64,000 nt of DNA from Parcubacteria group bacterium Gr01-1014_13 (GTDB lineage: Bacteria > Patescibacteriota > Patescibacteriia > Magasanikbacterales > GWA2-37-8), in contig VMGB01000001.1 of assembly GCA_007376295.1 (NCBI GenBank), positions 182,643 to 246,642 of the forward strand, in the 5' to 3' direction. A program made the translations under genes and the position numbers. The notes under the pieces were generated by a model. It was not told where the DNA came from and did no database searches. It was given only the letters and a program-made list of their open reading frames with translations. Positions 8,064 to 52,079 of the stretch are shown one piece after another. Positions within the stretch are counted from its first letter, which is position 1, and the number at the start of each line of letters is the position of its first letter.

Positions 8064-8477
8064 ATGGTTGATGTTCATACCAAAGAACAGCGTTCAAGAA
8101 ACATGGCCGCTATAAAATCACGTAATACAGGTCTAGAAGTCATTGTTTTTAAAATACTTAAAAATAGGAAAGTTTATTTTCAAAAACACTATAAAGGAAT
8201 TACTGGATCACCTGATATTGCGCTTCCGAGAAAAAAGATTGCAATTTTTATTGATGGTGATTTCTGGCATGGTTATAACTTTGCAAAATTAAAAAGAAGA
8301 TTGCCAAAAAAGTTTTGGATACAAAAAATAGAAAATAATATAAAAAGAGATAAGGCTGTCAGGTTAAAATTAAAAAAAGATGGTTGGAAAATAATGAGAA
8401 TTTGGGAGCATGAAATTAAGAAGAAACTGTTGCAGACTTTGGATAAAATTGAGGATTTTTTAAAAAATATAAAATAA
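8064..8477 (+). CDS. vsr: Very-short-patch repair endonuclease (Vsr)
   Basis: MAAIKSRNTGLEVIVFKIL...IAIFIDGDFWHGYNF matches the Vsr FxDGCFWHG core. Vsr classically accompanies a C5 methyltransferase. Confidence 0.85.
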   Translation: MVDVHTKEQRSRNMAAIKSRNTGLEVIVFKILKNRKVYFQKHYKGITGSPDIALPRKKIAIFIDGDFWHGYNFAKLKRRLPKKFWIQKIENNIKRDKAVRLKLKKDGWKIMRIWEHEIKKKLLQTLDKIEDFLKNIK

Positions 8478-21786: not shown

Positions 21787-22944
21787 ATGATTAAAAAAAT
21801 AAAAATTAAAAAATCACATAAAACTATTCAAAAAGATTTTGAATTAGATTTAGAAAAAACAACAGTTATTACTGGGAAAAATAACTCTGGGAAAACAAAC
21901 TTTATTCAAGCGGTAAATGCTAAAAAAGACGTGGAATTTACTAATGCAGAGTTCTTGGATGAAAAAGATAAATTAATAATTCCAATTACTATTTATATAG
22001 CTGCAGAAAATATAAACCCTTCTGATAATGAATCAAACTCTTCGGCTAAAAAAAGTAGTTTGATACAAAATTTAGCAGAATTATTTTCTAATTTAGGAAT
22101 TAAATTTATTCTTGAAGAACAACCTAAAATTATTCAGGAAATAAAAACTTTAATAGATAAGGCGGATGAAAATTTAAAGGAATTCAGCGGAAAAAATGAT
22201 CATGGTATTAAAATAAAATTTAATGAAGGAGAATTGGACCCCGCTACCATAGCACAAGCCTTAATTAAAAAAATTATTGGAGACGAAAACGGAGAGGAGG
22301 TAGATCTAGACGATTTAGGACAAGGCACTCAAAGAATAATTGTTGCTTCAATTTTGAAAGCGTATGTGGATATTTTGATCGAAAGAAACAAACATTCTCA
22401 AGAACCAATACTAATTCTTTTTGAAGAACCCGAAATTTATTTACACCCTGAATTGAAAAGGACTCTTAACATAACATTAAAAAAGATAGCTGAGCAAGAT
22501 AATCATCAGGTTATAATTACGACCCACGATCCATACTTTGCTTATACTAATTTAAATGGTGAAAATAGCGTTGTTTACTCTTTTTTAAAAACTGCAGAGT
22601 ACACAGAAAAAACAGAGCCAGGTATTATATTTGGAATTGAAGATGAATTACTTCATATTCATCTTTTTGAAAAAATGATACAAATATTAAAGAAAAGTGG
22701 GAAGGTTAAATCTTTTATATTAGACCCTGGTAAAGAATTAGACATCTATATAAAGGGTTATTGCGGAAAAGAATTAAGAGCAAATACATGGTATAAAGAA
22801 AAAAAAGGCATAGAAGATAAGCTTTCTCTACCTTTACATATCAGGCATTTAATCCACCATCCTGGAGGTAAAGATAAATTCACTGATATTGATTTAGAAA
22901 AATCAATAGAAATATTAAATTTAATTCTAAGCAAAGCATCTTAA
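21787..22944 (+). CDS. AAA/ABC-type ATPase of the OLD/AAA_15-AAA_21 family (385 aa)
   Basis: Walker A VITGKNNSGKTNFIQAV, ABC-like signature region DLGQGTQR, and Walker B/D-loop ILILFEEPEIYLHPELKRTL...VIITTHDP. The C-terminal 130 aa has no obvious match; it may be a degenerate Toprim-like region (GIEDE...LDPGKELD). Confidence 0.8.
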   Translation: MIKKIKIKKSHKTIQKDFELDLEKTTVITGKNNSGKTNFIQAVNAKKDVEFTNAEFLDEKDKLIIPITIYIAAENINPSDNESNSSAKKSSLIQNLAELFSNLGIKFILEEQPKIIQEIKTLIDKADENLKEFSGKNDHGIKIKFNEGELDPATIAQALIKKIIGDENGEEVDLDDLGQGTQRIIVASILKAYVDILIERNKHSQEPILILFEEPEIYLHPELKRTLNITLKKIAEQDNHQVIITTHDPYFAYTNLNGENSVVYSFLKTAEYTEKTEPGIIFGIEDELLHIHLFEKMIQILKKSGKVKSFILDPGKELDIYIKGYCGKELRANTWYKEKKGIEDKLSLPLHIRHLIHHPGGKDKFTDIDLEKSIEILNLILSKAS

Positions 22945-22970
22945 TGATGATCTAATTTTTTGTATTAAAT

Positions 22971-24476
22971 ATGGATTTTATTAGTAAAACAACTTATTTA
23001 GAGTATTTATCTTGCGGTAAAAATGCCTGGCTTAGATGTTATAAACCGGAATTAAAATCATTATTTAAATTATCTGATTTTGATAAAAGCCTAGTAGATA
23101 AAGGAAACTTAGTGGAAGATTGGGCGCGCAAACTTTTTCCAGACGGCGTTTTAATTACCGAATCAGACGAAGAAGCTTTACGAATTACCAAACAGCATAT
23201 CGCAGATAAAACACACGTTATTTTTCAATCAAAATTCATTCATGACAAATTTTTGGCAAAAAACGACGTGCTTGAGTATGATAAATTTAATGATTGTTGG
23301 AATTTATACGAAATTAAAGGCACTAATACTTTAGACGAAAATGTAAAAGAAATAGATCATATAGAAGATGCCACTTTTCAAACTATTATTCTAAAAGCCG
23401 TAGGAATTAAAGTTGGTAAAGTATTCATTATCCACCTAAACAAAGAATACGTCAGAGAAGAAGAAATAAACGTGGAGGAGCTTTTTATTAAGGATGACAT
23501 AACTGAGGAAGTTAAAAATAGGGAAGAAAATACAAAAGAAAAAATGCAAAAAGCAGCCGAATGTTTATTTCAACAAAATGAACAAGCTTTGGTCTGTCAA
23601 TGTGTCTATTCAGGCCGAAGCGCGCACTGTGCAACATTTAATTACTCCTATCCCAACATTCCAGAATACTCGGTTCATGATTTATCTAGAATAGGGAATA
23701 GTAAAAAAAAGTTAGAATCTTTGGTTGATTCACAAATTTTTGATATAAATGAAATTCCTGAAGATTTTGAATTAACACCCAATCAGCAAAATCAAGTTTA
23801 TGTACACAAAACTCAAAAACCAATAGTAGATTTAGTGGCTATAAAAAAAGAGCTTAAATCGCTTGCATATCCTCTGTATTTTTTGGATTATGAAACATAC
23901 CCGCCGGCCATACCTTTGTTTAAGGGTTTTAAGCCATACCAACAAATACCATTTCAATTTTCTTTACATATAATAGATGATGAAGATAGCGAACCGATCC
24001 ACTTGGAATATTTGCACGAAAATGCTACGGATCCATCTTTGTCTATTATACTCAAATTAAAAGAAATGATTGGTCCAAATGGCAATATAATTACCTGGAA
24101 TAAAAGATTTGAAAAAGGAATAAATACACAATTAGCTGAAAGAAACCCGGAATATGCAGATTTTATTGAAGATATAAATAGTAGAATTTATGATTTAATG
24201 GAAATATTCCAAAAACAATTTTATGTTCATCCTGGTTTTAAAGGAAAAGTTTCCATAAAAAAAGTTTTACCTATTTTAGTTCCTAAATTAAGCTATAAAG
24301 AACTAGAAATAAAAGAGGGCGGATCTGCTATGGAAGCATGGTACGAGATGGTATTTGGATCTGGCTCACAAGCAGATAAAAATAAAATAGCTGACGACCT
24401 GCGAAAATATTGCGGTTTAGATACTTATGCAATGTATGCAATTTGGAAAGAATTAATGAAAATTGTATGGCAATGA
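22971..24476 (+). CDS. Cas4/RecB-like PD-(D/E)xK Fe-S nuclease N-domain fused to a DUF2779 domain (predicted RNaseH-like exonuclease)
   Basis: N-terminal Cys-containing region (LSCGKNAWLRCY), D...EIK motif (NDVLEYD...YEIKG), Cys cluster CQCVYSGRSAHC, and DUF2779 core YFLDYETYPPAIPLFKGFKPYQQIPFQFSLH. Confidence 0.65.
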   Translation: MDFISKTTYLEYLSCGKNAWLRCYKPELKSLFKLSDFDKSLVDKGNLVEDWARKLFPDGVLITESDEEALRITKQHIADKTHVIFQSKFIHDKFLAKNDVLEYDKFNDCWNLYEIKGTNTLDENVKEIDHIEDATFQTIILKAVGIKVGKVFIIHLNKEYVREEEINVEELFIKDDITEEVKNREENTKEKMQKAAECLFQQNEQALVCQCVYSGRSAHCATFNYSYPNIPEYSVHDLSRIGNSKKKLESLVDSQIFDINEIPEDFELTPNQQNQVYVHKTQKPIVDLVAIKKELKSLAYPLYFLDYETYPPAIPLFKGFKPYQQIPFQFSLHIIDDEDSEPIHLEYLHENATDPSLSIILKLKEMIGPNGNIITWNKRFEKGINTQLAERNPEYADFIEDINSRIYDLMEIFQKQFYVHPGFKGKVSIKKVLPILVPKLSYKELEIKEGGSAMEAWYEMVFGSGSQADKNKIADDLRKYCGLDTYAMYAIWKELMKIVWQ

Positions 24477-34294: not shown

Positions 34295-35398
34295 ATGCTT
34301 ACCTGGCTCGAAATCAATTCTCGGGCTATTCAACATAATTTGCGACAGTTCAAAAAAATTGCTGGTCGCAAGGTTTTGCTTATGCCAGTAATCAAAGCCA
34401 ACGCGTATGGACACGGATTTTTAAACGTAGCCAAAATTTTACAAAAAAATAAGGAAACAGACAGAGTTTGTGTGGCTAGCCTGGATGAAGCGCTGGAGCT
34501 GATAAAAAATAAACTTACCAAAAAACCAATAATGATTTTAAGCTTTTTTGATCAGGATGAAAAAAAATTAGCTTTAACTATAAAAAATAATGTTATTTTT
34601 CCTTTATACAGCTTGGAAAATGCCGGACTGCTAAACAAAGTAGGGGAGAGTACGGGCAAGAAAGTAAAAGTGCATCTTAAAATAGATACCGGCGCTTCCA
34701 GATTAGGAATTTTACCGAGAGAAGCCTTGGATTTTATAGATAAATTAAAAAAATATAAAAAATTATATTTAGAAGGGATATGGAGCCACTTCGCTTCTAG
34801 TGAAGATGATTTTACTTATACCAAGAATCAGCACGAAATTTTTCAATCAGTTTGTAAAAATTTAAAAGACCGTAATATTTTTATTCCTATCAGACATATT
34901 GCTTGTTCGGCCGCAACGCTGAGTTATAAGTTTACCCATGAAAACGCTTTGCGTTTGGGCTTGAGTCTGTATGGTTTATACCCAAGCTCCAAAAATAGCG
35001 CTATTCAATTAAAACCGGCTTTATCCTGGTATACCGCTATAATTCAAGTAAAAACCTTGCCAACAGGCACTAAAATCGGTTATGGAGGCACTTATACGAC
35101 TAAACGACCTACAAAAATAGCTGTTTTACCAGTGGGGTATTGGGATGGCTATGACCGCAGGCTTTCCAATCATGGGTATGTGCTTATCAAAGGCAAAAAA
35201 TGTCCTATATTAGGCCGAATTTGTATGAATATCTGTATGGTAGATGTCACTAATCTATCAGTAAAAGCAGGGGATAAAGTGGTGCTAGTAGGTAAAGATA
35301 AAACAAAGAATATTTCGGTTGATGATCTCGCCAAATGGTGCGGCACTATCAACTACGAAATAGTAGACAGAATCAATCCGTTACTACCAAGAGTATGA
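34295..35398 (+). CDS. alr: Alanine racemase
   Basis: PLP-lysine motif VIKANAYGHG and a C-terminal beta-domain. Confidence 0.9.
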   Translation: MLTWLEINSRAIQHNLRQFKKIAGRKVLLMPVIKANAYGHGFLNVAKILQKNKETDRVCVASLDEALELIKNKLTKKPIMILSFFDQDEKKLALTIKNNVIFPLYSLENAGLLNKVGESTGKKVKVHLKIDTGASRLGILPREALDFIDKLKKYKKLYLEGIWSHFASSEDDFTYTKNQHEIFQSVCKNLKDRNIFIPIRHIACSAATLSYKFTHENALRLGLSLYGLYPSSKNSAIQLKPALSWYTAIIQVKTLPTGTKIGYGGTYTTKRPTKIAVLPVGYWDGYDRRLSNHGYVLIKGKKCPILGRICMNICMVDVTNLSVKAGDKVVLVGKDKTKNISVDDLAKWCGTINYEIVDRINPLLPRV

Positions 35399-36399
35399 AG
35401 CATTTTCGTTCTGAATACGCTTTTCAAAAATATAAACCACATGTAAGTTGGCGCAAAAGATTTTTGCGGTTTTTTCGTAAAAAACAATATGTAATTCCAT
35501 CTTCTCAAGATTCGTTTCATTATAAAACAAATCCTTTTAAAGCGCATAAGAAACCGAGTAAGATTAAAATTAAAGTTATAATTTTTGTTATATTTTTGGT
35601 AGCTTGGGCTATCTGCTTAGCTTATATTCCTTATTTTAAAATCAGTAAAATTAATTATTCCGGATTAAATAATACTACAAGAAGCGAGCTGGATACATTT
35701 ATTTATACAAATTTTCTAAATAAAAAGAGTATTTTACCATTGAATGCTTACTTTTTTATTAATACTCCTAAAATATCTGGCGAGCTTTACAAAAAATTTC
35801 CTTTTGAAACTATAGAAGTAATAAAAACTTTTCCAAATCAATTAGATATAAAAATTAAAGAAAAAATTTCTTCTGTTATATACGACAATGGTAAGAAATA
35901 CTTTTTGTTGGATAGTGGGGGAACAGCTATTAAATATTTAAAAGATGTAGAGTCTTATGAAATAACAGAACAAATTAGTACCAGCAGCTTTGATCTTTTG
36001 GCCTCCAGTACTATGCCTATAGCAAACACTTCTACAATCGAACACACTCCAGATTATAAAAAAATAAATAAACTATTTGGTAATTATCCTTTAGTTTACG
36101 ATCGACGTAGTTTTGAAGTTGAAATTAAACAAGAAAACATTTTACCTTCCGAACATATTGCCGCTATTATTAGTTGGTATAAAACTCTTACCGAACAGGG
36201 GATAGCAACCCCTAAATTCTTTGTTATAGACAACCTTAACTCCGGGATAGTGATAGATACGGCGGATTCCTGGGATATTTTATTCCAGCCAAAAAATAAT
36301 AACGATGCACAAATAAATACTCTAAAAGAAATTTTACCAACAATAAAACCACAGTATTACGTAGATCTTCGTTACGGAGAAAAAATTTACTGGAAGTAG
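35395..36399 (+). CDS. FtsQ/DivIB-like cell-division protein (POTRA domain). Start MKHFRSEY overlaps the alr stop (ATGA).
   Basis: Basic cytoplasmic N-terminus, single TM (IKVIIFVIFLVAWAICLAY), and a POTRA-like segment INYSGLNNTTRSELDTFI...FETIEVIKTFPNQLDIKIKEK. Confidence 0.5.
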   Translation: MKHFRSEYAFQKYKPHVSWRKRFLRFFRKKQYVIPSSQDSFHYKTNPFKAHKKPSKIKIKVIIFVIFLVAWAICLAYIPYFKISKINYSGLNNTTRSELDTFIYTNFLNKKSILPLNAYFFINTPKISGELYKKFPFETIEVIKTFPNQLDIKIKEKISSVIYDNGKKYFLLDSGGTAIKYLKDVESYEITEQISTSSFDLLASSTMPIANTSTIEHTPDYKKINKLFGNYPLVYDRRSFEVEIKQENILPSEHIAAIISWYKTLTEQGIATPKFFVIDNLNSGIVIDTADSWDILFQPKNNNDAQINTLKEILPTIKPQYYVDLRYGEKIYWK

Positions 36400-43326: not shown

Positions 43327-43382
43327 TTGACACAATTTATCAAGATGGTATAGTATTATCACTCTCGGCTAATGAGTGATAA
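43327..43382 (+). promoter_or_regulatory. clpB promoter followed by a CIRCE-like HrcA operator
   Basis: TTGACA (43327-43332), 16-nt spacer, TATAGT (43349-43354). Then TTATCACTC-N9-GAGTGATAA (43356-43382), compared with CIRCE TTAGCACTC-N9-GAGTGCTAA. Confidence 0.6.
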
Positions 43383-43393
43383 TCATAAAGCCT

Positions 43394-46021
43394 ATGATAC
43401 CACAAAATTTTACCAATAAATCACAAGAAATTATTCAAAATGCGGCCAAAATTGCCTATGAAAATGGGCAAGGGCAAATCGAGCCACCGCACTTGTTTTT
43501 TGCATTGCTCGAGGACACGGAAGGTGTTGTAGTTTCAGTTTTGCGTAAATTTAACGCTAATGTTATCGCTTTAAAGGCAGGTACTCAATCTCTCATAGAT
43601 AAACTGCCGAAGGGAATAGCGCCAAATGGCGGAATTGGTCAAATTTTACTTGGCCAGTCCATGCTTTATATATTTCAAACCGCAGTTGGCGAAGCTAAAC
43701 AAATGGGTGATGAATATATTAGTGTCGAACATTTATTTTTAGCATTTTTAGTCGGACACAATCCTATCGGAGATTTGTTAGACACAAATGGCGTAAGCTA
43801 TGATGAAGCTCTAAAAATTCTGGCCGGCATCCGCGGGACCCAAAAAGTAGACAGTCCGGAACCGGAAAGTAAATACAATGTTTTAGAAAAATACGGTAAA
43901 AATTTAACTGATTTAGCGTTCAAAGAAAAACTTGATCCGGTAATTGGCCGCGACGATGAAATTCGACGCGTGATGCAGATCCTTAGCCGCCGAACGAAAA
44001 ATAATCCGGTGCTTATCGGCGAACCTGGTACCGGAAAAACCGCTATTGCCGAAGGTCTGGCCCAAAGAATTGTTAATGGCGATGTGCCGGAATCTTTAAA
44101 AAATAAACAGGTTATCGCTTTAGATATCGGTTCCCTGCTCGCGGGTACAAAATTCCGCGGCGAGTTTGAAGATCGGTTAAAAGCAGTATTAAAAGAAGTA
44201 GATGAATCAGCCGGAAAAATAATTTTATTTATCGACGAACTACACATCATTGTTGGTGCCGGATCATCCGAAGGTTCTGTAGATGCTTCCAATATGCTTA
44301 AACCTGCGCTCGCCCGCGGCACTCTTCATGCCATTGGCGCGACCACTTTAAAAGAATACCAAAAATATATTGAAAAAGATGCGGCCCTAGAACGCCGTTT
44401 TCAACCGGTAATGGTAAACGAACCATCCCGCGATGATGCTATCGCCATCTTGCGCGGTATCAAAGAAAAATATGAGGTCCATCATGGTGTACGTATTACC
44501 GACTCCGCTATTTTAGCCGCCGTTGATCTTTCCCAACGATATATATCAGATCGTTTTCTACCGGATAAAGCTATAGACTTAATCGACGAAGCGACTTCAG
44601 CTTTGCGTTTACAGATAGATTCCATGCCCGATGAGCTGGATAAAATGAAACGCGCCATGATCAAACTGGAAATCGAAAAACGAGCTTTAAAAAAAGAAGA
44701 AGAAAAGGAAGCTAAGGAGCGTTTGGTAAAACTGGAAAAAGATCTGGCCGAATTAAAAGATAGAAGTACTGAACTCGAGGCGCGCTGGAGAAATGAAAAA
44801 GAAATAATCACCGACATCCATAAACATAAAAAGGAGATTGAACAAATCCGCCAAAAAGCGGAGATAGAAGAAAGAAAAGGTGATTTGCAAAAAGTAGCCG
44901 AGATTAGATATGGAAAAATTCCTAATTTAGAAGCGCAAATCCGCCAAAAAGAACATAAATTACTGGAGCTGAAAAAAACTAGCGGTATTTTGAAAGAAGA
45001 GGTTACTGAACAAGATATTGCTCAAGTGGTATCGCGCTGGACTGGTATTCCAGTTTCCAAAATGTTAAAAGGCGAAGCCGACAAACTTCTGCATATGGAA
45101 GACGAACTCGCCAAACGCGTAGTGGGACAAGAAGAGGCGGTCAAAGCCGTGGCCAACGCTATCCGCCGTTCACGCGCCGGCATTGCCGAACCGAACCGCC
45201 CTATTGGCTCATTTATCTTTTTGGGTCCAACGGGTGTGGGTAAAACCGAACTGGCCAAAGCACTGGCTGAATTTATGTTTGATACAGAAGAGGCGTTAGT
45301 GCGCGTTGATATGAGTGAATATATGGAAAAGCACTCTGCTTCTAAAATCATCGGCTCCCCTCCTGGCTATGTGGGCTATGAAGAAGGCGGTCAACTCACA
45401 GAAATCGTACGCCGTAAACCATATTCCGTAATATTATTTGATGAAATAGAAAAAGCGCATCCCGATGTGTTTAATATTTTATTACAAATTCTTGACGACG
45501 GCCATGTTACCGACGCCAAAGGCCGCACGGTAAATTTCAAAAATACCGTAGTCATCATGACAAGCAATATTGGTAGTAATTTAATTTTGGATTGGAATAA
45601 AAAAGGCGAATTTGGTTTTGCCGGCTCACAAACCAAAGGCGGAGAAAAAAGTATGCGTGATAAAATTATGGAAAATTTGCGCGAACATTTTAAGCCGGAA
45701 TTCTTGAACCGTGTTGATGAGATAATCACCTTCCATTCCTTGGCTGAAAAAGATATTGCCAAAATAGTTGAATTACAATTGGAAGAAGTTCAAAATAGAT
45801 TGCTTGAACAAAAAATTTACTTGATCATCGCTGATACTGCTAAAAAATATTTGGCTAAAAAAGGTTTTGATGAAAACTATGGCGCCAGGCCGCTCAAACG
45901 TTTGATTCAAACTGAACTTTTGGACGAACTGGCCATGGCCCTTATAGAAAAAAAGTTTAAAAATGAAGATAAAATAAAAGTTGGTACCAATAAAAATAAA
46001 ATCGTGTTGGAAAAATCATAA
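43394..46021 (+). CDS. clpB: ATP-dependent chaperone ClpB. ATG 43394 chosen; the track start at 43376 is a GTG inside the operator.
   Basis: Two AAA+ modules ([15 protein letters not shown] and [15 protein letters not shown]), a long coiled-coil middle domain, and N-terminus [11 protein letters not shown]. Confidence 0.95.
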
Positions 46022-46142
46022 AAAATACCAAGGTATTTTTTACATACGCTCGGAAATGAAAATAAATTTTTATTTCTCTCACTTTATATTAAAAATAAAA
46101 GCGAGGTGATATGCCTCGCCTGAAAATATTTCTCTCTTTTTT

Positions 46143-46886
46143 CTAACCACCCTTCAACATCTTTAGCGAACCGTTCGCTTCGGGTAGAGCCAGCTCGCGA
46201 TACGGATCATCAGACGGATCTTTTGCCGTATTAAGCTGATGCTGACTAATTGTAGTGCTAATTTTTTTCGCCTCTCTATATAATAGTTGTCGGCGTTCTT
46301 CTAGCCACTCACAAAATTTTTCATTCATTTTTCCTGATGTTTGCAGATGATCTAGGATATCAAACAGGTTGCAGCCATGAGCTTTTTGAAGCACTGGACA
46401 GATGAAGCTGCTATTTAGACGGCCGACACCAGCTGGCTTCTCGTCATTTTTTTCAGCTGTAATTCTTTGAAAAATACCACAGCTATTGCAAAAAGTGCCT
46501 ATATTTCCTGCACCAACTAGAAATGCTCCTGTCACTGAATGATCTTTCATTTCACTGATTTCGTGGAGCACTAGAAAATTTTGTTTACAATAAATACAGA
46601 CACTTTCAGCTCTACTCGTTTGCAACCAGCCTAGCATGTGCGCCCGCGGCGCTACGTTCTTTTCCAAAACAGTAAACCCCAACTGTCGCAAACGTTGGAC
46701 AACTGTTTGCCCGCCTTCCGGTCCTCCGCCGGTACCGAGCAAAAGAGCCTCTTTTGCTGCCAGTCGTCTGATTATCGTAGTTTCTAGCAAGAGACTGTAT
46801 TTGATTTCTGCGAGTTTACTGGCCAAGATAAAACCGCCACCCCCAGCGAGTAACACCCAGACTAAACATACAATGAGATAGAACAT
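46143..46886 (-). CDS. Hypothetical membrane-anchored Cys/His-rich protein
   Basis: N-terminal TM helix, Gly-rich GTGGGPEGG, and CIYCKQ...H...CNSCG...HGC clusters. Strong GGGAGG Shine-Dalgarno. Own promoter and terminator. Confidence 0.55.
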   Translation of the reverse strand: MFYLIVCLVWVLLAGGGGFILASKLAEIKYSLLLETTIIRRLAAKEALLLGTGGGPEGGQTVVQRLRQLGFTVLEKNVAPRAHMLGWLQTSRAESVCIYCKQNFLVLHEISEMKDHSVTGAFLVGAGNIGTFCNSCGIFQRITAEKNDEKPAGVGRLNSSFICPVLQKAHGCNLFDILDHLQTSGKMNEKFCEWLEERRQLLYREAKKISTTISQHQLNTAKDPSDDPYRELALPEANGSLKMLKGG

Positions 46887-46988
46887 GATGTCCTCCCTTT
46901 TTTGTCTCCCAAACTTAGCAAAATTTTAACGCTTTGTCAAGATAAAAAAAGGGCTCCTATATGTTTTCACATGTAAAAGCCCATTGAC

Positions 46989-47792
46989 TTACTGATCCAT
47001 CCCGCACTCATTCCAGTTGACCGGCGCGAATCCCTGTCCTGGGTACCTATCAAGGATATTACTCATGGCCGTGGCAATCTCTTCATCCCACCGTTCTCCA
47101 GTTGTTAACAGGAGAAAGGTATTTTCGGTCGGGCCGAATGAGACACTATTACGATTCATGATACACTCGTCCTCACCCGGCGGATACGCTTCCGGACAGG
47201 TGTGATCTCCGGGCTCGTTCCCGCTACCACAATAATGGTGATGCAGTCCCAATGTATGACCAAACTCATGGGCAAAGATTGTTTCGTAAACCAGATAGAC
47301 TTTGTGTCCGCCACCATAGGAAGTACCAGTACCTCCTAGAGTAGCCACGATATCATGACCAGGTAGCTGGTCGGCATCCATACCTGGCTGGTATTCCAAA
47401 AATGTGAAACTCCAACCCGGAAATTGCAGTTCCGCTAGGCGCTTGAGAGTGGCGAAATGTTCGGCTTCGTTTGTCCATGGCGGGTTGTAAAGTACCGGGT
47501 TTTCGTAGCGAACGTAGACGTTTACTTCGTGCTCATGACGACCGCTGAGATAGGCCCTGGACCACGTATTCTTACGTTTGAGCATCCAATCGGCCCACTC
47601 TGGCAGCATGCCAATTTTTGCTTGATAGGCCGCCATTTCAGCTTCATAGCCCAGCAAAATCTCTTCGTCTTCGGAGGTGCCAACATCGTTTGGCCCTGCA
47701 TCGGCGACCGAATCGTCGCTCTCCGTATCGCTATGGCAAGCAGCAAAAGCAAAAATGAACAAAGCAAACATCAGACAAGCCTTGAATTTCAT
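46989..47792 (-). CDS. Lipoprotein zinc metalloprotease of the metzincin type
   Basis: Lipobox LFIFAFAAC, the HExxHxxGxxH motif (HEFGHTLGLHH), and a downstream Met-turn candidate (ECIMN). AGGAGG Shine-Dalgarno. Confidence 0.7.
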   Translation of the reverse strand: MKFKACLMFALFIFAFAACHSDTESDDSVADAGPNDVGTSEDEEILLGYEAEMAAYQAKIGMLPEWADWMLKRKNTWSRAYLSGRHEHEVNVYVRYENPVLYNPPWTNEAEHFATLKRLAELQFPGWSFTFLEYQPGMDADQLPGHDIVATLGGTGTSYGGGHKVYLVYETIFAHEFGHTLGLHHHYCGSGNEPGDHTCPEAYPPGEDECIMNRNSVSFGPTENTFLLLTTGERWDEEIATAMSNILDRYPGQGFAPVNWNECGMDQ

Positions 47793-47916
47793 GAGTTTCC
47801 TCCTGTTAAAGTTGATTGCAAGCTACCATATTTTAGTGGTTTTGTCAAGGTTAAAAGTTTAAAAAAGCCCTCGTACGTTTACACATACAAGGGCCCATCA
47901 AAACCAACAAAATTTG

Positions 47917-48420
47917 TTAAATCACTTGCGCCAGAGTCAAAGCTCTGTGCTCTGTCTGCTGAAAAATTATGACTGCGTCTTCCGGATTCAAAAACCGATC
48001 AAACCGGTAACGACAGAAACATCGTCTCGAGCCCCTTACTCTGGCATAAGCAACGCAGATATCATTATCTGTGTTTAGCCATCTGGAATCTTCATCCAAA
48101 GCAAAAACTGCGGAATACTTTTCAATCTCCTCTGGATAGTGTCTGGCAAACTGGACAAGCTCACCGATATTCCCAAGGATATAGCCTTCGGCCACAAGAT
48201 CGCGCGCAAACTTTTCGATCCCTTTCCAACACAGGCACGGCGCCAATCTGGGAAGCATTATTCCGCTATTACCCCCGGCGCAATTAAATGTTTCAAAAGG
48301 AATATCCAGAGAAATATTGTAAAGATTTTCTTCGCCTACCGCCTTACGGGCCAATTCCCTTAAGCTACAGGTACTATCCAACACAGTTGGAAAAACCTGG
48401 CTGATTTTCGTTTCGCTCAT
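47917..48420 (-). CDS. Hypothetical protein (167 aa, Cys-rich, no family recognised)
   Basis: AAAGGAGG Shine-Dalgarno. Bounded by promoter and terminator modules like its neighbours. Confidence 0.5.
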   Translation of the reverse strand: MSETKISQVFPTVLDSTCSLRELARKAVGEENLYNISLDIPFETFNCAGGNSGIMLPRLAPCLCWKGIEKFARDLVAEGYILGNIGELVQFARHYPEEIEKYSAVFALDEDSRWLNTDNDICVAYARVRGSRRCFCRYRFDRFLNPEDAVIIFQQTEHRALTLAQVI

Positions 48421-48554
48421 CGCGCAACCTCCTTTTACCCGTTATTTTCTAACCCCAGTTTAATCAAATTTTTACGCTTTGTCAATATTGAATAATAAAA
48501 AAATACCTGGCGTATGAATGTTCTACAACTAAACATTTCTTTACGCAGGTATGA

Positions 48555-48965
48555 TTAGAGCCGCTTAGGAAACTCAAGCACTTTGTTTACTTCAGAATCT
48601 TTTTTAAGTTCATCGATTTGCTGACCCAAATCGGAAATCTTTCCCTCTAATTCCGCTCTCTTTTCCTGTAAAGCGTTCAACTTTTCAGCCACATCCACAG
48701 CAGAATCTTGAGCCTCATCCGTTGATGGAGGTAATGCCTCAACCTGCTTTGCTGGTGGTAGCTCTTTAGCGCTCTTTTCTAAGCCACTAAATATGAAGAT
48801 GGGCCAAATTGCTCCTCCAAATATACTAACAAGTACGGCAAACTGTTTATCGCAATCATTCCCTGCTCTAGGCAGTAATTTTTTAGCGATATTTTTCCCA
48901 GTCACATAGCCAAGATTGGCGTAAATAATGCTACCAAGAACCAACAAAACTATGTACAGCGGCAT
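48555..48965 (-). CDS. Hypothetical membrane protein with C-terminal coiled coil. Start MPLYIV chosen; the track start is the TTG of the -35 box.
   Basis: Two TM helices plus a charged coiled coil. GGGAGGG Shine-Dalgarno 4 nt upstream of the ATG. Confidence 0.5.
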   Translation of the reverse strand: MPLYIVLLVLGSIIYANLGYVTGKNIAKKLLPRAGNDCDKQFAVLVSIFGGAIWPIFIFSGLEKSAKELPPAKQVEALPPSTDEAQDSAVDVAEKLNALQEKRAELEGKISDLGQQIDELKKDSEVNKVLEFPKRL

Positions 48966-49002
48966 AGACCCTCCCTTTCCTTCTGGGTTTGAAGGAGCTT
49001 GC

Positions 49003-49053
49003 AAATTATCATAAAAATTAGCCTTTGTCAATATTGAAACCTTGTGCTACAAT
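49003..49053. promoter_or_regulatory. Divergent promoters sharing one palindromic -35 element (TTTGTCAA)
   Basis: Plus strand: TTGTCA (49025-49030), 17-nt spacer, TACAAT (49048-49053), leading to ATG 49064. Minus strand: TTGACA (49031-49026), 17-nt spacer, TAATTT. Confidence 0.45.
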
Positions 49054-49063
49054 TAACAATAAT

Positions 49064-51271
49064 ATGTGTAGAGAGATACGAAAAATTATATCCTTTATTT
49101 TGCTAAGTGGGCTTTTTTTGAGTCCGCCTTTGATTGCTTTGGCGCAGGTAGAATTCAACCCTCAATTTATAATTTCCGACGAAGAAATGCAGAGTACTGC
49201 TAACTGGACACAAACAGATGTTCAAAAGTTTTTACAAGACAGGGGTAGTTACTTAGCTACTCTCGTTGCCGAAGACCCGGATGGATTGTTTAAATCAGCG
49301 GCGGAGATTATTTATGATACGGCTGTAAAATATCAAATCAACCCAAAATTCTTGCTTGTTACTTTACAAAAAGAACAGAGCCTAATTACTGATGATACTC
49401 CCACCCAAAAACAACTCGACTGGGCTACAGGTTATGGTGTTTGCGACAGTTGTGATTTAAATGGCGACAGTCTTTTGAAATACAAAGGTTTTGGCAAACA
49501 AGTAGACAACGCCGGTGGCCTCATTCGTTGGTATTACAATAATACTGACAAATCTTTTGTTAAGAAAAAAGACCAAAACACCACAATAGATAATCAAATC
49601 ATTATTCCTCAAAGCTGGGCCACGGCTTTTTTGTACACTTACACTCCGCATATCCATGGCAACAAAAATTTTTGGCGTATTTGGAACACTTGGTTCAGCC
49701 AGATTTATCCTAATGGCACACTGCTTCGCTCGGCTTCTAGTTCTGAAGTCTGGCTTATCCAAAACAACATTAAACGTAAATTTAAAAATCAATCCACTTT
49801 GCTTAGCCGGGCTGATCCAAAAATGATTGTCACCGTACAAGAATCTGAATTAAGTAACTACCAAACTGGACAAGAAATATCTTTTCCTAACTACTCTGTT
49901 CTAAAAACTGCGTCTAGTTTTTATCTTTTAGACTACGATACTCTGCGCCCATTTGCTTCGGCCGATGTGGTGCGACAAATTGGTTATAACCCGGATGAGT
50001 TTATCGAAATTACCGACGCTGATATTGTCGGTTATCAACTAGGTTCGGTTATAAACGCATCAACCACTGCCCCGCAAGGTATAGTTTACCAAATTACCGA
50101 CCTAAACAATTCTTACTACTTATTTAAAGACAGCACTTTGTATCCGATAACCGACAAAAATATTATTGCTACCAATTACAAAGATTTGGCAATTGAAAAA
50201 CATCAACTTAAAGACATCAAAAATTTACCAGTCGCGGATTTGCCTTTGAATTTTAAAGACGGCACTCTTCTGCGGGTTACGGATAGTAGTAATGTTTATG
50301 TTATAGAAAATGGAAAGAAACGGCTGATTGCTGATGTAGATACATTTGCAGCTTTAGGTTACAATCGAAATAACGTAATTTCAGTCAGTGCTATTACAGC
50401 TGCCAATATTTTAAACGGCGAGCCTATTTTTATTAATGGTAGCCTTATTTCTTCACGCAATAAGTATCTGGGAGACAGTGAAGTAAAAGTTGATGATTTG
50501 TTTGGTAGTAAAATCCCCTCTTACCTGGTAGCCGAATACCCTAGCGGCCGAATTATTTCCGGCAAAAACATCGACAAACCCCGGTCTATCGCTTCGATGG
50601 TCAAATTATTGGTTGGGTATGAAGCTTTAAACCAAGATTTTAATTTAGCTAAATTCTCTGTTTATTCCAAGACAAAAAATGGCGCTCCGGGAAATAACCT
50701 GGCTTTACGAAATGGTGCGGTGATAAAAAATGCAGACTTATTTAACGCCATGCTTATCGGATCCACCAACAACACGGCCCGTTTAATCGGCCAATCCAGC
50801 GGTCTAAGTGAAGCATCATTTATTGAAAACATAAATAAAAGACTGGAAAATTGGGGTGCCGATGACACCAAAATTGTCGACGTCACTGGACTCGATGGCA
50901 AAAATAAGTCTACTCCCCGTAATTTATTAAAGATATTTACGCGTATTCTGGATAATCCAAACCTAAAAACATCGTTATCAAAAACCAAATATACCTTTAA
51001 AGAATTACCTAGTAAAGTTGGTGCTAAAAGTCATGCTATCTCCACTCCCAACAAGCTTGTTCCTTTAGCAAATGCAAATTACAAAATAATTGCGAGCAAA
51101 ACTGGTTCCACCAATGAAGCGGGAGTAGTTACGGTTATGCTTATAGAAACAATCAAAACCAAAAAACAATACACAATTATTACCATGGGCAGTACGGATA
51201 TAAAAAATCAAGAAGCCAACAAAATTGCCAAATGGATTTCCACTGGCAAAGTAAAAATTACCAGTAACTAA
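49064..51271 (+). CDS. Secreted multidomain protein with N-terminal domain, about four tandem 50-aa repeats, and a C-terminal D-Ala-D-Ala carboxypeptidase (S11, PBP5-like)
   Basis: Signal peptide ending ALAQV. C-terminal SxxK (SIASMVKLL), SxN (STNN) and KTG (SKTGST) motifs. Confidence 0.75.
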   Translation: MCREIRKIISFILLSGLFLSPPLIALAQVEFNPQFIISDEEMQSTANWTQTDVQKFLQDRGSYLATLVAEDPDGLFKSAAEIIYDTAVKYQINPKFLLVTLQKEQSLITDDTPTQKQLDWATGYGVCDSCDLNGDSLLKYKGFGKQVDNAGGLIRWYYNNTDKSFVKKKDQNTTIDNQIIIPQSWATAFLYTYTPHIHGNKNFWRIWNTWFSQIYPNGTLLRSASSSEVWLIQNNIKRKFKNQSTLLSRADPKMIVTVQESELSNYQTGQEISFPNYSVLKTASSFYLLDYDTLRPFASADVVRQIGYNPDEFIEITDADIVGYQLGSVINASTTAPQGIVYQITDLNNSYYLFKDSTLYPITDKNIIATNYKDLAIEKHQLKDIKNLPVADLPLNFKDGTLLRVTDSSNVYVIENGKKRLIADVDTFAALGYNRNNVISVSAITAANILNGEPIFINGSLISSRNKYLGDSEVKVDDLFGSKIPSYLVAEYPSGRIISGKNIDKPRSIASMVKLLVGYEALNQDFNLAKFSVYSKTKNGAPGNNLALRNGAVIKNADLFNAMLIGSTNNTARLIGQSSGLSEASFIENINKRLENWGADDTKIVDVTGLDGKNKSTPRNLLKIFTRILDNPNLKTSLSKTKYTFKELPSKVGAKSHAISTPNKLVPLANANYKIIASKTGSTNEAGVVTVMLIETIKTKKQYTIITMGSTDIKNQEANKIAKWISTGKVKITSN

Positions 51272-51281
51272 TTTAATAAAT

Positions 51282-52079
51282 ATGCCCCTTGTTTTTGCGG
51301 CTATCACCCCTCACCCACCACTCCTGATCCCCACTATCGGCAAACAGTCATTAAAAAAATTGGAAAAAACAAAAATTGCTCTGGAGCAGATGGAAAAAGA
51401 TCTGTACATCACTCATCCGGAAATTTTAATAATCATTTCTCCTCACGGCAGCTATTTTCATGATGCTTTTACGCTTAACGTCAGCACTCACTACCAGACC
51501 GATCTGCGCGAATTTGGCGATCTGGCTACAAAGATAAAATTTCAGGGCGAAACACATCTGGCCACTATGATTCGCGAAGGCACAAAAAAAGAAAATTTTC
51601 CCGCTACCATGATAAGTGAACAAAATTTGGACCACGGTTCTTCCGTGCCTTTATCTTACCTGACTAAACATCTTAAAAAAACAAAGATAATCCAGATTGG
51701 CTTTTGCGATTTAGATTGGAAAACCCATGTTGCTTTTGGAGCTATGATTGCCGATAAAATTTCGCAAATAAATAAACGGGTGGCGGTTATTGCTTCCGGA
51801 GACTTATCACACGCTCTGATTTCCGATGCACCCGCCGGCTACAATCCAGCCGGTCCGGAATTTGATAGAAAAATTCAGGAACTTTTGGAGAGTAAGAATT
51901 TATCCGGCATGTTGCAGTTGGACAAAAAGTTGGTGACTAACGCGTCTGAGTGCGGTTTTAGATCATTTTTAATTTTGATGGGCATCTTGCAAGGTGTTCA
52001 TCACACTTACAAATCGTACAGCTACGAAGCCCCTTTTGGCGTTGGTTATTTAACAGCAAATTTTGCTTTGTCTCCCTAA
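51282..52079 (+). CDS. LigB/Memo-superfamily protein (class III extradiol dioxygenase-like)
   Basis: MPLVFAAITPHPPLLIP..., ISPHGSYFHDAF and SGDLSHAL His-containing motifs. Confidence 0.45.
   Translation: MPLVFAAITPHPPLLIPTIGKQSLKKLEKTKIALEQMEKDLYITHPEILIIISPHGSYFHDAFTLNVSTHYQTDLREFGDLATKIKFQGETHLATMIREGTKKENFPATMISEQNLDHGSSVPLSYLTKHLKKTKIIQIGFCDLDWKTHVAFGAMIADKISQINKRVAVIASGDLSHALISDAPAGYNPAGPEFDRKIQELLESKNLSGMLQLDKKLVTNASECGFRSFLILMGILQGVHHTYKSYSYEAPFGVGYLTANFALSP

Follow-up and report, generated by a model that had tools for sequence, protein, structure and literature searches.

Adamalysin/reprolysin metzincins (MEROPS M12B; Pfam Reprolysin_4 and Reprolysin_5) combine a zinc-binding HExxHxxGxxH sequence with a downstream invariant Met in a catalytic domain of ~180 residues. 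According to the Gomis-Ruth classification, the rule for the adamalysin family is an Asp after the third zinc-binding His (HExxHxxGxxHD). Many bacterial metzincins are collected in Pfam Reprolysin_4 and Reprolysin_5. The same HExxHxxGxxH motif, downstream Met and domain size are found in the product of g2, one of four consecutive genes (g1-g4) located between clpB and the S11-family DD-carboxypeptidase gene dac. These genes lie in a stretch of 64,000 nucleotides, hereafter the window, from a contig of at least 495 kb of the metagenome-assembled genome 'Parcubacteria group bacterium Gr01-1014_13', a groundwater member of the candidate phyla radiation (CPR).

Some metzincins are encoded together with a dedicated adjacent helper, as is the case for CpaA of Acinetobacter with its membrane-bound chaperone CpaB and for serralysin, which is paired with the inhibitor Inh/AprI. 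The site of action of both CpaB and Inh is extracytoplasmic. CPR bacteria such as the Parcubacteria have tiny genomes and are thought to be attached to or dependent on other cells; to our knowledge, very few CPR surface effectors have been recognized. Plasticity hotspots and defence-island-like slots are characterized by fixed core flanks, variable content, atypical composition and fast-evolving orphan genes, features that recur at the present locus. The zinc motif that defines metzincins, and a second, structural zinc site in archaemetzincins and in the gut-bacterial IgA peptidase IgAse, have been described (PMC12237041). In the literature no paper was found that connects CPR bacteria or Patescibacteria with a metzincin of the g2 kind.

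We interpret the locus as a lineage-specific accessory-gene hotspot of paralogous promoter/terminator units, not as one dedicated machine, and put the probability of this reading at about 0.6. The gap between dac and clpB in a genus-level clade of groundwater Parcubacteria would hold one to four self-contained expression cassettes, each consisting of a sigma-70-type promoter starting with TTGACAAA(G/A), a GGAGG site, one open reading frame (ORF) and an intrinsic terminator. The intergenic DNA has the look of a repeated module because its promoter and terminator pieces are partly paralogous copies. The g3-g2 pair would be the conserved, persistent core of the slot, and g1 and g4 would be optional, membrane-tethered and able to come and go independently. 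A preliminary description of this DNA missed both the conserved slot with its variable cassette content and the conserved g3-g2 pair.

Gene content of the locus

All four minus-strand ORFs of the preliminary description are present at the coordinates given there, between two conserved flanking genes:

46143-46886, minus strand: g1, 247 amino acids (aa), from the ORF list
46989-47792, minus strand: g2, 267 aa, from the ORF list
47917-48420, minus strand: g3, 167 aa, from the ORF list
48555-48965, minus strand: g4, 136 aa, from the ORF list
43376-46021, plus strand: clpB, conserved left flank of the slot, with its own promoter TTGACAC...TATAGT at 43327
49067-51271, plus strand: dac, conserved right flank of the slot

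Hypothetical proteins G01um101413_236, _237 and _238 are encoded by g1, g2 and g3, respectively. The listed ORF of g4 begins at an upstream TTG (49031), and its credible start is the ATG at 48965 with GGAGG upstream. No ORFs of at least 50 aa occur between dac and clpB other than g1-g4 and shorter ORFs overlapping them; the antisense ORFs listed across this region are by-products of the coding strand. The 64-kb window contains no tRNA gene, and an Rfam scan of the whole window returned no family at its gathering score.

The four families are very small. Among 5.8 billion clusters, 22 relatives of g2, 5 of g1 and 2 of g3 were found, and among 1.84 billion representatives 10 were matched by g4, of which ~8 are true relatives. 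Scans of viral contigs gave no relatives of g1, g2 or g3. PADLOC gave no match for these three genes and only coiled-coil noise for g4 (E = 0.01), and NCBIfam, PADLOC and PHROGs held nothing meaningful for g1, g3 and g4. A family library search returned no mobility or integrase family for g1-g4. These are rare, non-core proteins with few relatives among billions of clusters. The locus is not an integron-like array either, in which an integrase and attC sites would bound promoterless cassettes, as each cassette has its own promoter and the promoter box is the sole boundary element that the cassettes have in common.

The same slot in related genomes

Slot contents were read by tracing g2 and g1 relatives to their contigs (related loci carry L-numbers; L006 and L019 come from the Hainich H51 samples). 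In at least seven related lineages the slot lies after dac and, where the contig is long enough, before clpB, except in L008, where a helicase gene comes next. Gene order agrees over a wider range too: priA, a LigB-like gene and dac, then the slot, then clpB, uppS, wecG, gltX, M23 and ddl. The slot itself varies in content:

Window: g4-g3-g2-g1
L027 and L002-L004: g4-g3-g2
L005/L006 and L028: g3-g2, then an unrelated gene of 99-132 aa
L008/L009: g3-g2, then an ORF of 228 aa
L007: g3-g2, with the contig ending downstream
L019-L022: g1 only

The flanking proteins are highly similar to those of the window (ClpB 93-95% identity over full-length matches, LigB 89-92%, S11 85-88%, PriA 77-82%), whereas the cassette proteins have diverged much further (g2 58-65%, g3 39-59%, g4 ~41%, g1 64%). 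The nonsynonymous divergence (dN) amounts to 0.24-0.63 for the cassettes versus 0.03-0.10 for the flanks and is thus 4-10 times higher. Synonymous divergence (dS) is saturated everywhere, and pairwise dN/dS is 0.12-0.35 where it could be computed. Conserved synteny together with saturated dS contradicts a recent horizontal transfer. Judged from these comparisons, g1-g4 appear to be fast-diverging accessory genes in a conserved slot, neither a recent insertion nor core genes.

The g3 and g2 genes are adjacent, with g3 upstream, in all six lineages with a readable slot (L003, L005, L007, L008, L027 and L028). They are fused in L003 (10-nucleotide gap) and in L007 (overlapping stop and start codons), and a separate g2 promoter is present in the window, L005, L008 and L027. 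In L028 no TTGACA was found between the two genes. The g3 gene would be co-inherited and, in some relatives, co-translated with g2, and it would probably support production or control of g2.

Two further observations concern the slot. Located 3' of g2 is a fifth cassette family, represented by L005 8749-9147 (132 aa) and L028 6947-7246 (99 aa), which have SWSGFGVT..WP..WEKEV in common. The L028 gene has its own TTGACAAAATGTTATAATTT promoter, and no known family was matched by this fifth family. Secondly, L025 2456-2695 (contig Ga0209542_10123381) and protein P0024 are fragments 84-85% identical to g3, which shows another metagenome to contain a much closer relative of the window genome. Such a relative would be useful for unsaturated dN/dS estimates.

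Ribosome-binding sites and promoters

Each start codon has a GGAGG upstream at normal spacing, and TTGACA-17 nucleotides (nt)-TAnnnT, a predicted sigma-70-type promoter with a spacer inside the 16-18 nt range of this type, stands upstream of 4/4 genes on the minus strand:

46912-46940, minus strand: g1 promoter, TTGACA (from 46940), 17 nt, TAAGTT, orthologous to the L019 promoter; g1 ribosome-binding site AAGGGAGGACATCATG
47820-47848, minus strand: g2 promoter, TTGACA (from 47848), 17 nt, TAGCTT, TG before the -10; g2 ribosome-binding site ACAGGAGGAAACTCATG
48457-48485, minus strand: g3 promoter, TTGACA (from 48485), 17 nt, TAAACT; g3 ribosome-binding site AAAGGAGGTTGCGCGATG
49003-49031, minus strand: g4 promoter, TTGACA 49031-49026, 17 nt, TAATTT 49008-49003, TG before the -10; g4 ribosome-binding site AAGGGAGGGTCTATG

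The GGAGG-type Shine-Dalgarno sequence and the TTGACA -35 element claimed for each gene could thus be read directly in four of four cases. The -35 hexamers are perfect in all four cases, but the -10 hexamers agree with the consensus in no more than 3-4 of 6 positions, with an upstream TG in two of the four; as predictions the promoters are convincing, but their strength is not established. The spacer and 5' untranslated region of the g3 promoter (AAGCGTAAAAATTTGATTAAACTGGGGTTAGAAAA) are kept in relatives, and an orthologous copy of the g4 promoter is kept in L027 and L003. Orthologous copies of the g2 promoter occur in L027, L005 and L008; L003 and L007, in which g3 and g2 form a fused operon, lack this promoter.

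Several promoters also resemble each other. The g1 and g3 promoter regions are 73% identical over 51 nt, with 17/23 matching positions after the -35, and a second subgroup (TTGACAAAA...) comprises the promoters of g2 and of the 99-aa gene. With a promoter, a Shine-Dalgarno sequence, an ORF and a hairpin predicted four times over, the earlier view of individually transcribed units assembled from related promoter/terminator pieces gains support.

The preliminary description had further reported a recurrent motif, (T)TTGTCAA(G/T)AT, at 46929, 47841, 48477, 49023 and 1329, and these positions are right within 1-4 nt. TTGTCAAKRT has 5 matches in the window, all on the plus strand and four of them inside 46.9-49.0 kb, versus 0.96 expected in shuffles (0/100 shuffles reach 5). 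TTGACAAA likewise occurs 5 times in the window and is intergenic in 5/5 cases, while intergenic DNA makes up 10% of the window. The motif is the reverse complement of the -35 hexamer with its neighbours, its core being the hexamer plus AA(A/G). It is shared because of recognition by RNA polymerase and because of common descent of the promoter copies.

The motif had been taken to mark a shared regulator. In such a co-regulated surface/secretion regulon, a dedicated regulator at the TTTGTCAAKAT box would switch the four genes for host interaction. Enrichment of the box and its confinement to the locus and one other site in the window are in agreement with this idea, as are its invariance in 13 aligned promoters from several lineages and the predicted surface exposure and fast evolution of g2. 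Furthermore, in the window the box forms part of a 10-bp palindrome, TCAATATTGA, overlapping the -35 element at both g3 and g4, and the dac promoter overlaps the box. However, the invariant TTGACAAA equals the consensus -35 plus two bases at 17 nt from the -10, so that RNA polymerase explains its conservation, and TCAATATTGA was rejected as an operator because it is not kept in L005, L007, L008, L027 and L028. No regulator gene is found at the locus, the cassette content is variable with g1 also occurring alone, and of the four proteins one is cytoplasmic and two probably face the cytoplasm. A dedicated regulon is therefore considered unlikely.

The fifth copy of the motif is the only place elsewhere in the 64-kb window with a promoter resembling the cassette promoters. 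This promoter, ATATTGACAAA... (TTGACA-17-TATACT, -35 at 1335-1330, minus strand, in 1207-1340), faces ~90 nt without an ORF, between the plus-strand genes 660-1205 and 1418-2866. The non-coding stretch downstream ends in a two-way hairpin, AAAAAAACACCATTAATGGTGTTTTTTTT (1210-1238), and may, as a prediction, encode a small RNA. Rfam returned no family at threshold for 1207-1340, the best being RNAI with 27.7 bits versus a gathering score of 47.

Terminators

A hairpin followed by a U-run, predicted to act as intrinsic terminator, was found 3' of the stop codon of 4/4 genes (z-scores of -3.9 to -7.4 versus shuffles):

46090-46121, minus strand: g1 terminator, GGCGAGGC ... CCUCGCUU, then UUAUUUUU; z = -5.0; conserved in L019
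46944-46982, minus strand: g2 terminator, -16.4 kcal/mol, z = -3.9; paralogous near-copy of the g3 terminator
47859-47896, minus strand: g3 terminator, 14-bp stem, loop UAAA, UUUUUU; -25.3 kcal/mol, z = -7.4
48496-48552, minus strand: g4 terminator, long imperfect hairpin, UUUUUUU; -16.3 kcal/mol, z = -4.15

The A-run/stem-loop/T-run structures reported earlier are thus present in part: hairpin and U-run occur at all four genes, but the terminators are one-directional on the minus strand. What was seen as an A-run on the plus strand is the transcript's U-run, and a second T-run is lacking.

The claim that two intergenic modules are near-copies of each other held up on alignment. The g2 and g3 terminators are identical at 29/40 aligned positions with a score of 17, on a scale on which unrelated pairs (window and related loci) score 1-8 and known orthologous pairs 12-26 (P = 0.001-0.02 versus synthetic GC-clamped hairpins with a T-run). 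The two are therefore real paralogs. Scores of 4-6 show that the window g2 terminator has no ortholog in the hairpins 3' of g2 in L003 and L007; it resembles the g3 type instead; the L027 g2 terminator is visibly of the same type. The g3 terminator is related to the g3 terminator of L008, in which a weak g3-type hairpin is also found 3' of g2. A terminator profile search gave no further copies of either module in the 64-kb window. In L008 (5752-5810) the 228-aa ORF starts inside a hairpin similar to terminators of the g3 type (nhmmer E = 0.029); either the start codon or the whole ORF may have been called wrongly.

The promoter box as cassette boundary

Seventeen cassette promoters from eight lineages were anchored on TTGACAAA. 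On the 3' side of the box the sequence is specific for the cassette type and kept among orthologs (for g3, TTGACAAAGCGTAAAAATTTGATTAAACTGGGGTTAGAAAA in the window and TTGACAAAGCGTAAAAATTTGATTAAAGTGGTGTTAGAAAA in L005). On the 5' side it is set only by the neighbour, either the divergent dac -10 region or the terminator of the previous cassette. Homology thus switches from neighbour-specific to cassette-specific exactly at the box. In the clade loci, 14/16 occurrences of TTGACAAA are cassette promoters, and the clpB promoter has TTGACAC... in all of them.

The dac promoter (TTGTCA-17-TAYRAT, TG before the -10) has the 7-bp near-palindrome TTGnCAA in common with whichever cassette adjoins dac. 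The -35 elements of cassette and dac overlap completely, and this overlap is conserved in relatives. In the window the dac promoter (plus strand, TTGTCA-17-TACAAT, 49025-49053, TG before the -10) and the g4 promoter lie back to back (49003-49053), with one set of 7 bp (49025-49031) serving both as -35. Because these base pairs are shared, two polymerases would not be able to bind both promoters simultaneously.

It can be speculated that the TTGACAAA(G/A) box is both a boundary and a short direct repeat at which promoter-gene-terminator units are lost, duplicated or swapped. In the window, L003 and L027, g4 stands between exact direct repeats of 10-16 nt, and deletion between them would give the arrangement of L005, L007, L008 and L028. 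The locus would then be an integrase-free cassette array of reduced genomes, with an expression signal doubling as recombination substrate. Frequent recombination at the box could also explain the persistently raised GC content at third codon positions (GC3), by GC-biased gene conversion, and the higher synonymous divergence of the cassette genes. We regard this mechanism as improbable.

The lipoprotein metzincin g2

The g2 protein has an N-terminal signal peptide that ends in a lipobox, MKFKACLMFALFIFAFAA-C19, of which Cys19 is invariant in 22 sequences and the adjoining residues are variable. Its zinc motif reads H175-E-F-G-H179-T-L-G182-L-H-H185, followed by H186 and Y187. H175, E176, H179, G182, H185 and M212 are invariant in the 22 family members, so that the lipobox-bearing HEFGHTLGLHH metzincin of the preliminary description is well supported. 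M212 is part of C210-I-M212, by sequence the Met-turn, 27 residues after H185, in a region with a predicted local distance difference test (pLDDT) score <50 (residues 210-216). In the metzincin clan this methionine sits in a tight 1,4-turn beneath the zinc. Cysteines C188, C199, C210 and C263 are conserved.

The AlphaFold2 (AF2) model of g2 (core pLDDT ~90 for residues 40-185, predicted template modelling score (pTM) 0.74) displays the fold of a metzincin catalytic domain, with a beta-sheet, a backing helix, the active-site helix and a C-terminal helix. In Pfam, g2 scores 22.2 bits for Reprolysin_4 (cut-off 22.0), 25.5 for Reprolysin_5 (cut-off 27) and 14.2 for Reprolysin (cut-off 20.8), and several family members carry precomputed PF13688 or PF13583 assignments. 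Sequence identity with solved structures is 8-16% with marginal sequence profile matches, and no Foldseek match to the g2 model was better than E = 0.05. The third zinc ligand is followed by His186, which is invariant in the family. Because this residue is His and not Asp, g2 is provisionally filed as a metzincin outside M12B. By analogy with archaemetzincins and IgAse, a second, structural metal site could be built from the conserved cysteines together with the residue that follows the third ligand; the extra cysteines could instead form disulfides in the exported protein.

Sec-dependent export and lipidation at Cys19 are most likely for g2 and would leave it anchored on the outside of the cell membrane. 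In this position the protein would be a zinc endopeptidase that coordinates its metal through His175, His179 and His185, uses Glu176 as catalytic base and may cut external proteins or peptides, either in scavenging or in remodelling the surface of a partner; food proteins, the cell's own envelope and a host surface are all candidate targets. The earlier suggestion that the locus might be host-directed would accord with its rapid evolution and changing gene content.

Relatives of g2 at 31-38% identity are found on contigs of high-GC Acidobacteriota, Gammaproteobacteria and Myxococcota and also have lipoboxes. Two of them, L010 5956-6771 and L017 5959-6774, are near-identical and lie beside the same gene for an extracytoplasmic function (ECF)-type sigma factor. 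The two contigs differ in their labels, which are Candidatus Paceibacter (65.6% GC, an odd value for a member of the CPR) for one and Gammaproteobacteria for the other, and one of the two bin assignments is probably wrong. In L017 a large serine recombinase is located just upstream, which hints at mobility.

The g3, g1 and g4 proteins

No signal peptide or membrane segment is present in g3, as read from its sequence. It found no match in Pfam, NCBIfam, PADLOC, PHROGs or a PDB profile search, where nothing appeared even at E = 10. Approximately eight orthologs are known, each of those with a readable neighbourhood located directly upstream of g2, and no relatives were detected outside the clade; a metagenome scan with the g3 profile gave 4 loci, three of which were already in the set. 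The g3 protein is predicted to be cytoplasmic and a conserved partner of g2. By analogy with metzincins that have dedicated neighbours, such as CpaA with CpaB, it probably serves g2 in some way.

The g1 protein has an N-terminal membrane segment followed by basic residues, and a domain in which four invariant cysteines form a zinc-ribbon pattern (C97-x2-C100 ... C133-x2-C136), accompanied by the block C172-NLFDIL. Its AF2 model, obtained from 5 sequences, is poor (mean pLDDT 50, pTM 0.38). A PDB profile search with g1 gave no match even at E = 10, and when all sequences of the g3 and g1 alignments were run against Pfam at E = 10, only scattered noise appeared. The g4 protein has two membrane segments, a basic cluster after the second, and a C-terminal coiled coil with the conserved ending ...EV.KVL.FPKR[LF]. 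Its orthologs in the same slot of L003 and L027 are ~40% identical, and no curated family was matched beyond coiled-coil noise. Basic residues lie on the soluble-domain side of the membrane segments, and following the positive-inside rule the membrane-anchored g1 and g4 probably have cytoplasmic soluble domains.

Only g2 of the four products is clearly extracytoplasmic. The earlier designation of the locus as a secreted/surface module consequently fits g2 only, as g3 has no signal peptide and the g1 and g4 domains probably face the cytoplasm. The individual protein descriptions were broadly correct, but the Cys-richness attributed to g3 is not kept in its orthologs.

Strict g3-g2 pairing, orphan families, a dN 4-10 times that of the flanks and variable content in a fixed slot, as in defence islands, are also what a conflict system would display. 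In such an anti-phage, anti-competitor or host-attack system g2 would be the effector, with g3, g1 and g4 in sensor, immunity or control functions. However, PADLOC, PHROG and viral-contig matches are lacking, and dN/dS is 0.12-0.35 and not >1. Moreover, an immunity protein against an extracellular protease should be exported, which g3 is not, and g1 is found without the other cassette genes. We consider a conflict system a doubtful explanation.

GC content and codon usage

The four genes had been described as having a GC content of 45-55%, like atpA and clpB, and as highly expressed. The measured values are:

g1: GC 0.442, GC3 0.387
g2: GC 0.504, GC3 0.515
g3: GC 0.452, GC3 0.452
g4: GC 0.416, GC3 0.372
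Mean of window genes (standard deviation, sd): GC 0.380 (0.040), GC3 0.336 (0.058)

Only g2 (~+3 sd), which has the highest GC and GC3 of all window genes, and g3 (~+2 sd) deviate clearly. This part of the description stands for these two genes but not clearly for g1 and g4, and the comparison was loose, since clpB (0.407) and atpA (0.412) are lower. The genes are atypical in composition, as had been proposed. All four cassette genes show a high codon-usage distance, mostly an excess of C-ending and especially G-ending codons. These deviations do not follow the preferences of atpA and atpD (r = -0.14, with a small two-gene reference set), which gives no support to expression at the level of atpA. 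Translational selection was rejected as the cause of the raised GC3 for the same reason.

In every ortholog of g2 GC3 is raised, 0.36-0.58 versus mostly 0.29-0.42 in flanking genes. The LigB/Memo-like gene beside dac (51282-52079) likewise has a GC3 of 0.425, and 0.44-0.50 in its orthologs of L005, L007 and L008. Because this gene is also raised, gene-specific GC3 differences are stable in the clade and not unique to the cassettes. Very low GC values (28-31%, GC3 0.19-0.23) are found for genes 21787-24476, 8064-8477 and 35335-36399, the 'other accessory genes' of the preliminary description, and could constitute a further atypical region.

A recently acquired foreign islet, in which the four genes arrived together by horizontal transfer from a higher-GC donor, would account for the composition of g2, for the codon-usage distance of all four genes and for a C- and G-ending codon excess that does not track atpA and atpD. 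The g2 relatives in high-GC phyla, one of them beside the serine recombinase of L017, would suit such an origin as well. Its recent date is contradicted by genes, promoters and position that are common to at least seven relatives with saturated synonymous sites, and raised g2 GC3 is kept in every ortholog. Furthermore, there is no tRNA gene in the window, no mobility family is found among the four, and the cassettes vary independently and not as a block. An islet of this kind is improbable, although an ancient transfer of g2 alone is compatible with a hotspot of accessory genes.

Ordinary, highly expressed housekeeping genes, whose GC content and signals would reflect their expression level, might also show consensus -35 elements, GGAGG sites and tight terminators, and GC3 is somewhat raised in some core genes (LigB-like, 0.425). 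This explanation is extremely unlikely in view of tiny, clade-restricted families with a presence that varies between close relatives, codon shifts uncorrelated with atpA/atpD and a divergence far faster than that of the flanks.

Strength of the interpretation

Several points weigh against an accessory-gene hotspot of self-contained cassettes. Promoters, terminators and monocistronic transcription are predictions, and the -10 hexamers are weak. The link between g3 and g2 derives from their adjacency, and a genome scan with the g2 profile found distant g2 relatives in other phyla without an adjoining g3. The AF2 model of g2 is unreliable at 188-198 (the Cys-rich loop) and at 210-216 (the Met-turn). 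With dN/dS below 1 and saturated dS, the fast divergence could reflect relaxed constraint rather than diversifying selection. Finally, the hotspot picture is drawn from ~8 metagenomic lineages, among which no empty slot was seen.

The value of these findings is descriptive and current ideas are not overturned, but they provide a well-defined target for experiments. The g2 protein is a candidate CPR surface effector, being clade-specific, predicted to be lipid-anchored and diverging several-fold faster than its neighbours. With its clearly predicted promoters and terminators, rare for CPR bacteria, the array could serve annotation and the design of expression tools, and the small hotspot could show how genes are gained and lost in streamlined genomes.

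Comparison with known systems

Compared to M12B enzymes, g2 has His186 where adamalysins have Asp, and it is a predicted lipoprotein without a disintegrin or other extra domains. Similarity with IgAse extends to the Met-turn, which is likewise Cys-first (C606-I-M608-R in IgAse, C-I-M in g2), and to the Tyr two residues after the third ligand (Y552 in IgAse, Y187 in g2). However, the cysteine spacing of g2 differs from that of archaemetzincins and IgAse, and its putative second site lies in a low-confidence part of the model. The g3 protein resembles CpaB and Inh/AprI in its position next to a metzincin but, unlike these, has no signal peptide, no membrane segment and no sequence similarity to either.

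As a slot, the locus differs from described plasticity hotspots and defence-island-like slots in its very small size (1-4 genes) and in the absence of an integrase, a tRNA or recognisable defence genes. It also differs in that every gene has a copy of one promoter type, with the -35 box marking the cassette boundary. The locus is a divergent metzincin subfamily in a variable chromosomal slot, an ordinary though neatly built hotspot and not a new kind of system.

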